From: an uncultured Thermococci archaeon
GTDB taxonomy: Archaea > CAYQAE01 > CAYVLA01
DNA: 64,000 nt
Reading direction: 5' to 3'
Assembly (NCBI GenBank): GCA_964549615.1
Contig: CAZJVP010000072.1
Location: 1-64,000, forward strand
Shown piece by piece: positions 7,060-42,860 of this stretch. The translations under genes were made by a program, and so were the position numbers. Position 1 is the stretch's first letter. Each line of letters opens with the position of its first letter. Below the pieces are notes generated by a model that was not told the DNA's origin, made no database searches, and saw only the letters and a program-made list of their open reading frames with translations.

Positions 7060-7131
7060 GCTGGGGTAGCCTAGAGGTGAGGCGGCGGACTGCAGATCCG
7101 CTTTACAGGGGTTCAAGTCCCTTCCCCAGCT
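7060..7131 (+). tRNA. tRNA-Cys(GCA), intronless, CCA not encoded
   Basis: Acceptor GCTGGGG/CCCCAGC, anticodon arm GCGGA-CTGCAGA-TCCGC, T loop TTCAAGT, U discriminator. Confidence 0.96.
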
Positions 7132-7435
7132 CCTCATGGCGAATGCTCTCTTGGGCGGAAGCCTTCCAGTATCCTCGTAAGCTGGCTTGGAGTTGGGTAC
7201 GGCAGCGATCATGTGCGTTCCCTGCCGCCGGGGAAGCGCCCATCACGCCAAGTCCGTTGACCGGCCCGAGCCGGCCGCCGATGGGACTTAGACTGATCGG
7301 AAACCAGCGTATCGATTTCAAGGAAATGTGGACCTTTCTTTCGAACTCGCCAAGGCCCAGGGAAACCGAGGTTGATGCTTTTCAGCACGGCATCTTTATC
7401 AGTTGCCGAGTTCGACGGGGACGTGAGCGGCCGCG

Positions 7436-39691: not shown

Positions 39692-40804
39692 TTGGTGAAG
39701 TTGGTGGATTTGGGGCTAGCGTGGGCGAGGTATCTTAGGCCAACCAAAGTATTCCTGACGGCGGTGGTGCTGGGAGTTGCGCTCGGGCTCGCGCTCTCGA
39801 TCCTTGCCCCGCCGATTCTGACCGCGCTCGAGCACGCCCTTTATTTCAGGATCACGAAGCCCCTTGAGATCATACAGAAGCCCCTGTCAGGGATAGTTGG
39901 AACTGAGGAAGTAACGGCCCTCTACCTGCTTGGGAACAATCTGATCGTGTCGTTCATCGCGGCCTTCGGCGGGGCCATCTTGATCCGATACACGGTGAAG
40001 CCGGGCCAGGAAACCTACACAAGGGAGGGGCGCATCACCAACCTCCTCTGGAGGCTGATAGGGGAGGGGGATGAGAAGTACAAGGAGCCAGCGGTGCTGG
40101 CATTCCTCCTTCCCTTGGCCGTCGTCTTCGTCAACGGTGGCGTCTTCGGGCTCTTCTCGGTGAGCAATGGGCTGTCGTGGAAGGAACTCTACGTGTACTT
40201 GGCCTACGTGCTTCCACACGGTTCGGTTGAGTTGCCGGCCGTGATCCTCGCCGCAACCATTGGCTACGCCACCGCAGTGAAGCTGGACTCCTTTCTTAGG
40301 AAGGGCGACCTCGAAGCCTTCCTCACATACGCAGGCAGGAGCTTGAAATCCAGAAGGTCTTGGGGCCTTTTCTCCCTCGTCTGCGTCATGCTAGTCTTCG
40401 CGGCGGCCATCGAAGCTTACCTTACCCCCGCCATCGGAAGGACGGCTCTGCAGAACTCATACTTTGATCTTCGCGTGCTAAACGAGTCGGTCAGACAGGG
40501 AGAGCCAGCCTTCTTGGTCGTCCTGGCGTCGTTCGGCGCGACCGTGACCTTTCACAACGGCTCGCTCTCAGGGCCCCCTCTTGAGGTCGAGCTTTTCGGC
40601 AGCAAGCAATATCCCTTTGAGGTCGACGGGCGCAGGATTCAGGCATCGGAGGTCGTCAGCGGCCATCAGCTCCGCATCCCCCCTGACGTCGGTGCCCTCC
40701 TCCTCAAGTTCCGTGTCAGCAACTTGACGCGCACCACCGTGGTGCACATCCTGGCATCCTGTAAGAAGCTGACCCGCGAGTCCAGACTTGAGGTGCTCGC
40801 CTAG
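39692..40804 (+). CDS. SpoIIM-family (DUF95) membrane protein with a C-terminal beta-rich domain
   Basis: NNLIV, VNGGVFG, LPHGSVELPAVILA..IG and AAAIEAYLTP motifs. Confidence 0.85.
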   Translation: MVKLVDLGLAWARYLRPTKVFLTAVVLGVALGLALSILAPPILTALEHALYFRITKPLEIIQKPLSGIVGTEEVTALYLLGNNLIVSFIAAFGGAILIRYTVKPGQETYTREGRITNLLWRLIGEGDEKYKEPAVLAFLLPLAVVFVNGGVFGLFSVSNGLSWKELYVYLAYVLPHGSVELPAVILAATIGYATAVKLDSFLRKGDLEAFLTYAGRSLKSRRSWGLFSLVCVMLVFAAAIEAYLTPAIGRTALQNSYFDLRVLNESVRQGEPAFLVVLASFGATVTFHNGSLSGPPLEVELFGSKQYPFEVDGRRIQASEVVSGHQLRIPPDVGALLLKFRVSNLTRTTVVHILASCKKLTRESRLEVLA

Positions 40805-40830
40805 CCGGCTCGACGGCAACGCCCAGCGCG

Positions 40831-40848
40831 CAAGTAAGACTTAATAGC
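40831..40848 (+). promoter_or_regulatory. TATA box for the SRP RNA/leuA-ilvB-ilvH transcript
   Basis: AAGAC-TTAATA at 40836-40846, the only TATA-like box seen ahead of the SRP RNA and leuA/cimA. Confidence 0.6.
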
Positions 40849-40914
40849 TTGCACCCAGAGCAAGGCTTCTCGGCCAAGGCCTGTTCAGCAGGATCCGTGG
40901 CCGATGCACAGGAA

Positions 40915-41261
40915 GGCAGCTTGCGGCCAACCCGGCGGACTAGGCGGGAGGCTAGGCGTCTCCTGTCACCCGAAATCGTCTATACGCGGGGCTGAATGCC
41001 GCGGGGCGGTTCGGCCGCGGGACGTTGGGCCCGGGTCCCGAACGTTGACTCTCCGTCCCTCAGGGTCGGTGGATGTGGGGCCCCCTTCGGAGGAAGGCGG
41101 CAACCACATTTGCTTTCCGAACCCCACCAGGCCGGGAACGGAGCAGTGGTAGGAAAGACATGCGGCGCTTGAGGGGCAACGGGGACGAGGTAAGGCTCGA
41201 CAAGCCCACGTCCCGCGACGGGCCCACCCGCGGATGTTCGGCGGGGTCGAAGCAGGCTGCC
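40915..41261 (+). other. Bulge-helix-bulge processing motif closing the SRP RNA
   Basis: Outer helix 40915-40924/41252-41261 (10 bp), bulge GAA 41249-41251, central helix GGCC/GGTC (40925-40928/41245-41248), bulge AAC 40929-40931, inner helix 40932-40940/41236-41244. Confidence 0.85.
40931..41250 (+). ncRNA. ffs: Archaeal signal recognition particle (7S) RNA
   Basis: Alu domain with TGTCA (UGUNR) and loop-loop complement TAGGCG/CGTCTA. Helix 6 CCTTC-GGAG-GAAGG (41084-41097). Helix 8 CAGGCCG-GGAA-CGGAGCAG (41128-41146). Termini pair. About 320 nt. Confidence 0.95.
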
Positions 41262-41281
41262 CGATGGACGGACGGATGGAC

Positions 41282-42860
41282 ATGGGAAGGGACGGAGTTC
41301 TACGTCTCTGACTACAACGACATCGCCCTCGAAAGGGCAAGGCTGCCCGAGCGAGTAGCGATTTTTGACACGACGCTCAGGGACGGCGAGCAGACGCCGG
41401 GCGTCTCCCTGACCGTTGACGAGAAGATACGGATCGCTTGCGCGTTAAATGAACTGGGCGTGGACACCATAGAGGCCGGATTCCCAGCAACATCGGAGGG
41501 AGAACTGAAAGCCATATCCGAAATAGCCGGCCTTGGGCTGAAGAGCGAGATCTGCGCCCTGGCACGGTCCAACCAGAAGGACATCGACCTAGCGTTGAGC
41601 TCCGGGGTCAGCTGCATCCACACGTTCATCGCGACCTCGGACATACACCTGAAACACAAGTTGAAGATGACGAGGGATGAAGCCCTGCAGAAGGCTGTCG
41701 AGACCATAACATACGCCAAGGAACACGGGGTCGTCGTTGAGTTCTCTGCCGAGGATGCGACGAGGACCGAGCTTGGGTACCTGCTCAGGGTCTACTCAGC
41801 TGCCCAGGACGCAGGCGCTGACAGGATAAACGTCCCGGACACGGTGGGCGCCATGATACCGAGGGCTATGGGGTATCTGGTTGGCAGGGTATGCGAGGCC
41901 GTGAAAGTTCCCGTCTCTGTGCACTGCCACAATGATTTCGGGATGGCCGAGGCGAACTCGCTGGCATCCGTGGAGAACGGCGCGACACAGGTTCACGTCA
42001 CCGTCAACGGTCTGGGGGAGAGGGCGGGAAACGCCTCCCTGGAGGAGGTGGTGATGTCCCTGCACTCCTTCTATGGCATCAAGACCAGCATCGTGACCCA
42101 GAAGATCTGTCCGACGTCCCAGCTCGTCTCGCGCCTGACGGGCATTCCCGTGCAGCCCAACAAGGCAATCGTGGGCGAGAATGCCTTCGCGCACGAGTCC
42201 GGCATACACGTCCACGGGGTGCTCGAGTCCGCAGCGACCTATGAGCCGCTGATGCCCGAGATGGTCGGGAGCACCCGGCGGATCGTCCTAGGCAAACACA
42301 CGGGAGCGCATGCCATATCGGCCAAGCTCGGCGAGATGGGCATCAAGGCCACGGAGGCGCAGGTATCCGAGATCGCCCAGCGGGTCAAGAAGATAGGCGA
42401 CATGGGCAAGGGGATCACCGACGCCGACCTCATGGCCATAGCGGAGGCCGTCATAGGCAAAGTCCCAGAGGGCAAGCGAACGCTGGAGCTGGTGAACCTG
42501 ACGGTGGTAACCGGCGACAGGACCATACCTACTGCATCACTGGCGCTCATCGTGGACGGCAAGCGAGTTGAAGGTGCCAGCATAGGGGACGGCCCTGTGG
42601 ACGCTGCGATAAAGACGATAAAAGATGTCATCAGGGATTTTGGCAAGGTCGAATTGAAAGAGTACCGGCTCGAAGCCATCACCGGAGGTAGCGATGCGGT
42701 TGCGGAGGTCACAGTCAAGGTGATTGACGATCTGGGCAACCTTGCGACGGCCCGGGGCGTTAGCACCGACATAGTCATGGCGAGCGTTGAGGCCATGATT
42801 GAAGCGGTCAATAGGCTGTTCGCCAAGAGAGGGAAGGAAGGAGGAAAGCCAAGTGGCTGA
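41282..42860 (+). CDS. 2-isopropylmalate/(R)-citramalate synthase (LeuA/CimA family); 5' end anomalous
   Basis: FDTTLRDGEQ, HCHNDFG, NGLGERAGN, HESGIH and a C-terminal regulatory domain (GDGPVDA). No in-frame ATG/GTG/TTG between the SRP RNA and the conserved core (see findings). Confidence 0.92.

Follow-up and report, generated by a model that had tools for sequence, protein, structure and literature searches.

How does an archaeon make its signal recognition particle (SRP) RNA, and how does it begin its 2-isopropylmalate synthase, when the SRP RNA gene stands directly before leuA and leuA has no ordinary start codon of its own? The question is raised by a locus at positions 40831 to 42860 of a 64,000-nucleotide stretch of DNA (positions 1 to 64,000 of contig CAZJVP010000072.1, assembly GCA_964549615.1; hereafter the window) from a Candidatus Hadarchaeota genome. 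A preliminary description of this DNA had proposed that splicing at a motif of the bulge-helix-bulge (BHB) type removes the SRP RNA as an intron from the leuA mRNA, and that the same event gives leuA its start. Excision of the SRP RNA at the BHB was borne out, as a circle that is found in metatranscriptomes; a start for leuA gained by splicing was not. The explanation that we favor on balance combines an SRP RNA circle made at the BHB, a place of the SRP RNA in the leader of the leuA operon, and a leuA start at an ACG codon under the influence of a short open reading frame (ORF) that overlaps it.

Excision of the SRP RNA at a BHB motif and its closure into a circle

The SRP RNA of the window was recognized by a match to RF01857 at 40933-41243 of the (+) strand, with a score of 186.1 bits compared to a gathering score of 96.5, covering model positions 1-317 of 317 without truncation. 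The gene is collinear with the Rfam model from 1 to 317, and the permuted order of the Thermoproteus type was not found in it. One DNA run (X2) and three metatranscriptome runs (X3, X4, and X5) were compared over 40750-41450; the runs that contain the locus come from hot-spring and microbial-mat samples. Each of the three RNA runs gave one contig covering only 40929/30-41250, which closes on itself and shows no branch into the flanks. The contigs of X3 and X5 are 352 nucleotides (nt) long and join 41250 to 40929 with one ambiguous A, corresponding to a circle of 322 nt plus a 30-letter overlap. That of X4 is 350 nt long and passes from 41249 to 40930, with one A between G41249 and C40931, corresponding to a circle of 320 nt plus an overlap of again 30 letters. 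By contrast, the DNA contig of X2 runs linearly across 40865-41446, with 6 substitutions and no indel (about 99% identity over 582 nt). Both products predicted from the BHB motif therefore exist as RNA and not as DNA, and the SRP RNA is excised at this motif and circularized. The RNA and the two strands of the motif are located as follows.

40930..41251 (322 nt) or 40931-41250 (320 nt), + strand: excised circular SRP RNA, delimited by the RF01857 match and the circle junctions in the RNA contigs
40915..40940, + strand: 5' strand of the hBHBh' motif, with the outer helix, the 4-bp central helix, a 3-nt bulge (40928-40930 or 40929-40931), and the inner helix, which is SRP helix 1
41236..41261, + strand: 3' strand of the hBHBh' motif, with the inner helix, the central helix, a 3-nt bulge (41249-41251 or 41250-41252), and the outer helix

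The sequences on both sides of the SRP RNA pair around it as a canonical hBHBh' at the base of SRP helix 1, and they can do so in two registers one base pair (bp) apart. In register 1, which was read from the sequence, the outer helix is formed by 40915-40924/41252-41261 and the central helix by 40925-40928/41245-41248, leaving bulges at 40929-40931 and 41249-41251. In register 2, which was found by a strict scan, the outer helix is 40915-40923/41253-41261, the central helix 40924-40927/41246-41249, and the bulges are 40928-40930 and 41250-41252. In the tRNA arrangement described in PMC4090602, the 4-bp central helix includes anticodon nucleotides 34 and 35; with the canonical intron at 37/38, cleavage then falls behind the second bulge nucleotide on either strand. 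Applied here, this rule predicts the release of 40931-41250 (320 nt) from register 1 and of 40930-41251 (322 nt) from register 2. The observed junctions coincide with these sites, register 1 being represented in X4 and register 2 in X3 and X5, with the 5' cut located after 40930 in the 320-nt form and after 40929 in the 322-nt form. The segment 40931-41250, which the preliminary description had expected to be removed, is thus exactly one of the two circles. The register choice rests on the RNA junctions because these, and not folding, settled the cut sites; thermodynamic folding recovered the outer and inner helices, drew the BHB core as an internal loop, and did not choose between the registers. 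The circles of 320 and 322 nt come from different RNA runs of what is seemingly one strain, which fits a BHB in two registers (40928-40931, 41249-41252).

The strict hBHBh' rule used in the scan asks for a central helix of 4 bp, two 3-nt bulges on opposite strands, and a length of 4 bp or more for both the outer and the inner helix. The window passed it with an outer helix of 9 bp and an inner helix of 4 bp; in register 1 the inner helix of the window is 3 bp long and is followed by a G.G mismatch. A strict hBHBh' was found around the SRP RNA in 4 of the 32 SRP loci scanned, all of them in the Hadarchaeota family in which the SRP RNA precedes leuA (the SRP-leuA family), and in none of the 26 loci outside this family (G004 and 25 others), with the limits that the scan may miss relaxed motifs and that the mismatched-flank control (38/992) is inflated by within-family pairs. 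Both registers are satisfied in L036. Compensatory changes that preserve pairing in the outer and inner helices were found in L036, G001, and G003; they were read by eye (the MAFFT alignment misplaces the outer helix of G003, which is 2 nt longer).

In the mechanism that we propose, the SRP RNA gene would be transcribed with a leader of about 60 nt and a trailer, which would pair as hBHBh'. The tRNA-splicing endonuclease would cleave both bulges behind their second nucleotide, and RtcB would close the excised SRP RNA, with the two registers giving rise to the circles of 320 nt (40931-41250) and 322 nt (40930-41251). That these two enzymes are responsible is probable, and the genome encodes both of them: PF01974 (tRNA_int_endo) gave three domain matches of 99, 66.9, and 43.4 bits, and RtcB (PF01139) gave 607 bits. 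Two of the tRNA_int_endo domains stand in tandem in one frame of 414 codons, and the third one lies at a second locus (G000:C88:58736-59533 (-) and G000:C90:41769-42002 (-)).

Position of the SRP RNA gene upstream of leuA

Two elements precede the SRP RNA.

40831..40848, + strand: promoter-like box CAAGTAAGACTTAATAGC including the TATA-like CTTAATAG, about 89 nt before the 5' cut, with a presumed promoter function
40870..40929, + strand: leader ("exon 1", about 60 nt, with a hairpin, from the fold), containing GTG 40897, ATG 40904, and TTG 40921, and ending at the 5' cut after 40929 or 40930

Transcription would start at about 40868-40874, as judged from the sequence. In the relatives, a promoter-like box was found 79-90 nt before the 5' cut, in full in L036 (GTTAATAG), G001, G002, and L038, and as the AACTTAATAGC core only in G003. 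ATG 40904 of the leader is present only in the window and L036 among the family sequences. Downstream of the SRP RNA, the conserved part of leuA begins after about 50 nt and is followed by an acetolactate-synthase-like ORF. In agreement with the preliminary description, which had seen no room for a promoter there, none of the six family sequences shows a promoter-like sequence, an A/T-rich box, or a T-run (at least 4 T) in the interval from the SRP RNA to leuA. Because neither a promoter-like sequence nor a T-run separates them, RNA polymerase probably continues from the SRP RNA into the leuA-ilvB operon; co-transcription of the SRP RNA with leuA is plausible on these sequence grounds, and so is an intron-like place of the SRP RNA in the 5' leader of the operon.

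The SRP RNA precedes leuA in all six family sequences, namely the window, G001, G002, G003, and the metagenome contigs L036 and L038. None of eight other Hadarchaeota leuA loci (L118, L119, L120, L124, L126, L127, L128, and L168) has an SRP RNA within 1.5 kb. Flanking of the SRP RNA by a BHB and its linkage to leuA look like traits of one family. In G004 (L035 800-1420, - strand), which represents the only other family in the class, the SRP RNA lies in an A/T-rich setting with a T-rich stretch downstream and has no strict BHB.

It is conceivable, although rather unlikely in our judgment, that the circle is a by-product or an intermediate, that the functional SRP RNA is linear, and that leuA is transcribed from a promoter that went unrecognized inside the SRP RNA gene. 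Circular forms of pre-16S and pre-23S rRNA are described as intermediates in other archaea (PMC7714728), and the contigs show neither ends nor amounts of the RNA; however, they close on themselves and lack any flank branch in 3/3 runs, and the SRP circle made at a BHB in Thermoproteus is described as binding SRP19 and SRP54 (PMC4731332). Regarding the promoter, the SRP RNA gene has a G+C content of about 68%, with no A/T-rich box near its 3' end. Several points weigh against a functional circle released from an operon leader. The contigs would look the same for a mature circle and for a processing intermediate. Those of X3 to X5 leave 40870-40928 and 41254-41349 without cover, being uninformative either way on exon ligation, and the short RNA cover at 41350-41420 is the conserved leuA core of other organisms. 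Finally, only register 1 is canonical in G001, which has A in place of G41249, and in G003, and the strict BHB rule is failed by G002 (a bulge of 4 nt) and by L038 (a mismatch in the outer helix).

The start of leuA and the overlapping short ORF

Two reading frames overlap downstream of the SRP RNA.

41292..42860, + strand: leuA (2-isopropylmalate synthase), with the proposed near-cognate start ACG 41292 two codons before F-Y-V-S-D-Y-N and the stop at 42858-42860
41264..41311, + strand: short ORF in the -1 frame relative to leuA, with ATGs at 41264, 41276, and 41282 and the stop TGA 41309-41311, overlapping the leuA start

The leuA product was assigned by matches to NF002085 (717.5 bits compared to a cut-off of 517) and NF002086 (579.3 compared to 532). 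Its frame of 521 codons is intact and shows 77-90% identity among family members, with synonymous sites saturated downstream. The frame is open from 41073, inside the SRP RNA, and as the preliminary description had noticed, it contains no ATG, GTG, or TTG between the 3' end of the SRP RNA and DTTLRDGEQ. From ATG 41282, the core of the short ORF reads M-G-R-D-G-V-L-R-L, and 6/6 family sequences carry M-x-R-D-G-V-L-R-L-stop. Within this core only base 41296 varies; in the short ORF it falls on the third position of a Gly codon, and in leuA on the second position of the codon for a variable residue. Over the overlap, the leuA codons for F, Y, V, and S are base-invariant (4/4), whereas only 3/35 downstream codons with a conserved amino acid are so. 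This dual constraint argues that both frames are read across 41297-41308 and therefore that LeuA starts at or before TTC 41298.

Immediately upstream of this point, ACG 41292, at position -2, is invariant in the six family sequences. At its position homologs in two other archaeal genomes (G034 and G011) have ATG, and a codon-by-codon alignment matches it to the ATG of L006 and L008 (GGG ATG GCG TTC in these loci vs GGG ACG GNG TTC). L006 and L008 carry the short ORF as well, preceded there by a well-spaced Shine-Dalgarno (SD) sequence. In L036, only GAA, GGG, ACG, and GAG lie between the last stop in the leuA frame and F, and ACG is the sole near-cognate codon among them. Translation of LeuA would thus not depend on a start codon in the leader and would begin just upstream of F-Y-V-S, most likely at ACG 41292. 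The short ORF (ATG 41282-TGA 41311) probably limits the access of ribosomes to this weak start or delivers ribosomes to it, which could occur by occlusion or by termination and re-initiation. We consider it probable, from the pattern of conservation, that ACG 41292 initiates LeuA and that the short ORF serves to control its translation.

Weak non-AUG starts and leader ORFs are known to tune translation in bacteria, as in the case of the AUU start of infC and of the leader peptides of amino-acid operons. The start of leuA resembles these cases in that a biosynthetic gene combines a near-cognate codon with a short ORF lying upstream of it or overlapping it. It differs from them in that it is archaeal, in that the main start is overlapped by a short ORF in the -1 frame, and in that no terminator or anti-terminator structure was identified at the locus. 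Sensing of Leu or Ile by the short ORF was also considered and is unsupported, because the F-Y, F-S, or L-S codons of leuA by themselves dictate the Leu and Ile codons.

The arrangement extends beyond the family. Among 151 distinct leuA-type start regions (all fetched loci), 17 have no in-frame ATG, GTG, or TTG, and an overlapping short ORF is present in the -1 frame in 16 of these 17 as compared to 3 of 17 in the +1 frame, although the 17 regions come from about five lineages and are not independent, so that the count overstates their independence. Similar start regions were found in Bathyarchaeia and in three other archaeal lineages, none of them with an SRP RNA upstream. At the position of ACG 41292, the codon is ATG in L010, ATT or ATC in L013, L015, Bathyarchaeia, and L191, and ATA or ATC in L018 and L019. 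An SD-led short ORF beginning with ATG or GTG in the -1 frame was found in the window, L006, L007, L008, L013, L015, L018, L019, L114, and L169-L194. Base changes within the overlap in Bathyarchaeia leave the amino acids of the leuA frame as they are and cause radical replacements in the short ORF. Four Bathyarchaeia loci (L173, L174, L175, and L184) have two consecutive short ORFs in the -1 frame, about 50-70 nt before the D of DTTLRDGEQ, and the first of them, L-K-R-D-V-I-stop, is similar to the core R-D-G-V-L that the short ORF has in Hadarchaeota.

Besides the limited independence of these regions, two further points tell against a start at ACG. The SD-like GGAGG lies just 1 nt before this codon, closer than is usual, and the window and L036 have a weakened form of it; and in the literature consulted, initiation at ACG, or at ATT, ATC, or ATA, was not found documented for archaea. 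Nothing relevant on an upstream ORF or a non-AUG start of leuA in archaea was found there either.

Ribosomes might instead begin at the SD-led ATG of the short ORF, at 41282 or earlier, and reach the leuA frame by a +1 frameshift before TTC 41298, which we hold to be unlikely. Such a shift would account for the retention of an ATG or GTG in the -1 frame where leuA has no start (16/17 regions, 6/6 in the family), for the good SD sequences placed 6-7 nt before the ATG of the short ORF, and not before the leuA start, in L006, L008, L007, and L015, and for the Bathyarchaeia loci L173, L174, L175, and L184, where the short ORF has exchanged its ATG for GTG and has so kept a start. Nevertheless, no slippery sequence before the F codon is common to the lineages, as a programmed +1 frameshift of the prfB type would have. 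At the homologous position an ordinary ATG stands in frame in L006, L008, and L010, and the short ORF thus exists where no shift is needed. Moreover, the codon at this position is always within one base of ATG (ATG, ACG, ATT, ATC, or ATA), which a frameshift does not predict. A shift at the stop itself was considered as well, at the prfB-like site CTC TGA (C), but constraint on both frames across F-Y-V-S, upstream of this site, excludes it, as do the FYVS-like N-termini of homologs with clear starts. The term "isopropylmalate synthase" is absent from the text of a review on archaeal recoding (PMC8211752).

The start postulated in the preliminary description lies in the leader and would read through the exon junction into LeuA, from GTG 40897 or TTG 40921 after removal of 320 nt or, as an extension of the same idea, from ATG 40904 after removal of 322 nt. 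The observations and the arithmetic behind this proposal are correct. Unspliced, GTG 40897 and TTG 40921 lie inside an ORF at 40849-40995 that is ended by TGA 40993, and dropping 40931-41250 does set both of them in the leuA frame, as the excision of 322 nt does for ATG 40904. In the window alone, each of the two junctions observed as circles therefore brings some leader start into frame with leuA and leaves that frame open up to FYVS, and leuA itself is without a canonical start. Nonetheless, the 322-nt circle, seen in 2/3 RNA runs, puts GTG 40897 and TTG 40921 in the frame of the short ORF and not in that of leuA, and an open stretch of 14 codons together with a frame match of 1 in 3 is expected by chance.

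The relatives contradict such a start as a conserved mechanism. When both junctions (320 and 322) were simulated in the five relatives with the same synteny, an ATG, GTG, or TTG of the leader read into LeuA in none of them under either junction. In L036 (whose LeuA is 90% identical), G001, and G003, the leuA frame is interrupted by stops on the way from the SRP RNA to FYVS, which blocks any junction; in G002 the only leader ATG is followed immediately by a stop, and in L038 the only leader ATG terminates at the junction. In addition, ordinary in-frame starts are found downstream of the SRP RNA, an outcome that the preliminary description itself had named as contrary to its proposal: L038 has ATG 9 codons before F, G003 has GTG 1 codon before it, and the strain of X2 carries C41269T, which turns the in-frame ACG 41268 into ATG, an ordinary leuA start 10 codons before F. 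ATG 40904, as mentioned above, does not extend beyond the window and L036, and the trailer upstream of 41282 tolerates indels and frame changes across the relatives, as non-coding sequence does. The leuA-type genes of other phyla with no SRP RNA nearby likewise have no canonical start, and there as in the family the conserved short ORF and the ACG or its counterparts account for the missing start without splicing. A start in the leader is accordingly highly improbable. An error of assembly or sequencing, for which the homopolymer GGG 41284-41286 next to the out-of-frame ATG might speak, or a leuA pseudogene, is refuted by the independent DNA run, which has no indel and confirms ATGGGAAGGG at 41282, by the frame arrangement shared among six genomes and contigs, and by the intact and conserved leuA frame.

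A wider reading of the BHB-made circle and of the ACG start is put forward only tentatively. One BHB event on a single transcript would yield both a closed, functional SRP RNA and a ligated leuA-ilvB mRNA. An essential non-coding RNA would then be hosted as an intron of an mRNA leader. The two registers would produce mRNA leaders 2 nt apart, in which the leader starts stand in different frames with respect to the short upstream ORF and leuA. Independently of this, the leuA-type genes of about five archaeal lineages from several phyla would share a previously undescribed translational control element, consisting of an SD-led short ORF that overlaps, in the -1 frame, a main start which is often non-AUG (ACG, ATT, ATC, or ATA).

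Comparison with known BHB substrates

Permuted SRP RNA genes that give rise to a BHB-dependent circular SRP RNA are described for Thermoproteus tenax and T. uzoniensis (PMC4731332). As in these species, leader and trailer of the Hadarchaeota SRP RNA form a BHB, the motif is cut, presumably by the endonuclease, and the ends are joined into a full-length circle. The benefit proposed for the Thermoproteus circle is stability at high temperature (PMC4731332), and the locus studied here was found in hot-spring and mat runs. In Thermoproteus, however, the permuted gene has its junction in helix 8b and depends on circularization to restore the RNA, whereas in the present case the gene is collinear and helix 1 is closed by the junction. 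In further contrast to the Thermoproteus case as described there, two registers produce two sizes of circle and a protein operon follows with no terminator-like sequence in between. SRP-associated circles are also listed for Sulfolobus, Halobacterium, Haloferax, and Thermococcus (PMC3326292, PMC12558985, bioRxiv 10.64898/2026.03.23.713588). No report of a collinear SRP RNA gene processed in this way was found in the literature consulted, although full-length SRP circles could be among the entries in the supplementary tables of circular RNAs that go with PMC3326292, PMC12558985, and the T. barophilus preprint.

Other archaeal RNAs share single features with this locus. The BHB stems of 16S and 23S rRNA (PMC7714728, PMC7758197) are similar in that the flanks of a structured RNA form a helix with a BHB and a circle is released from a polycistronic precursor; they differ in that the substrate here is SRP RNA and the downstream cistron is protein-coding. 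The intron in the 5' untranslated region of Haloferax volcanii HVO_1309 (PMC7714728) is, likewise, a BHB segment before a coding region that is removed as a circle, and its removal alters the leader and not the protein. That intron is 46 nt long and no function of its own is given in that account, whereas in the present case it would be an essential non-coding RNA of 320/322 nt. The crenarchaeal cbf5 mRNA intron (cited in PMC7714728) is comparable in its BHB-dependent excision from a protein-coding transcript. It interrupts the coding region, however, and its removal restores the ORF, whereas here a conserved ORF with its start and frame continuing across the junction was found in 0/5 relatives. 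Finally, the tRNA-Trp intron that contains a box C/D small RNA (PMC4090602) also represents a functional small RNA nested in a BHB-excised segment, the host being a tRNA and the guest a guide RNA; here the host would be an mRNA leader and the guest is the SRP RNA.

Three features thus set the Hadarchaeota locus apart from these known cases: a collinear SRP RNA gene closed at helix 1, two registers, and a position directly upstream of a protein operon. It provides a collinear SRP RNA gene that takes the BHB route, with direct RNA evidence from environmental transcriptomes, which suggests that covalent closure of SRP RNA may be a more general adaptation to heat and that the splicing endonuclease may have more substrates other than tRNA than is usually assumed. 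The SRP RNA, fixed upstream of an amino-acid operon with no promoter of its own recognized, offers a testable case of a non-coding RNA hosted in an mRNA leader. Start-less leuA-type genes with a dual-constrained short ORF also affect annotation, because gene callers will pick wrong starts, and their overlapping short ORF hints at a so far unstudied type of translational control among archaea.

The sole tRNA gene of the window, an intronless tRNA-Cys (GCA), is located at 7060-7133.

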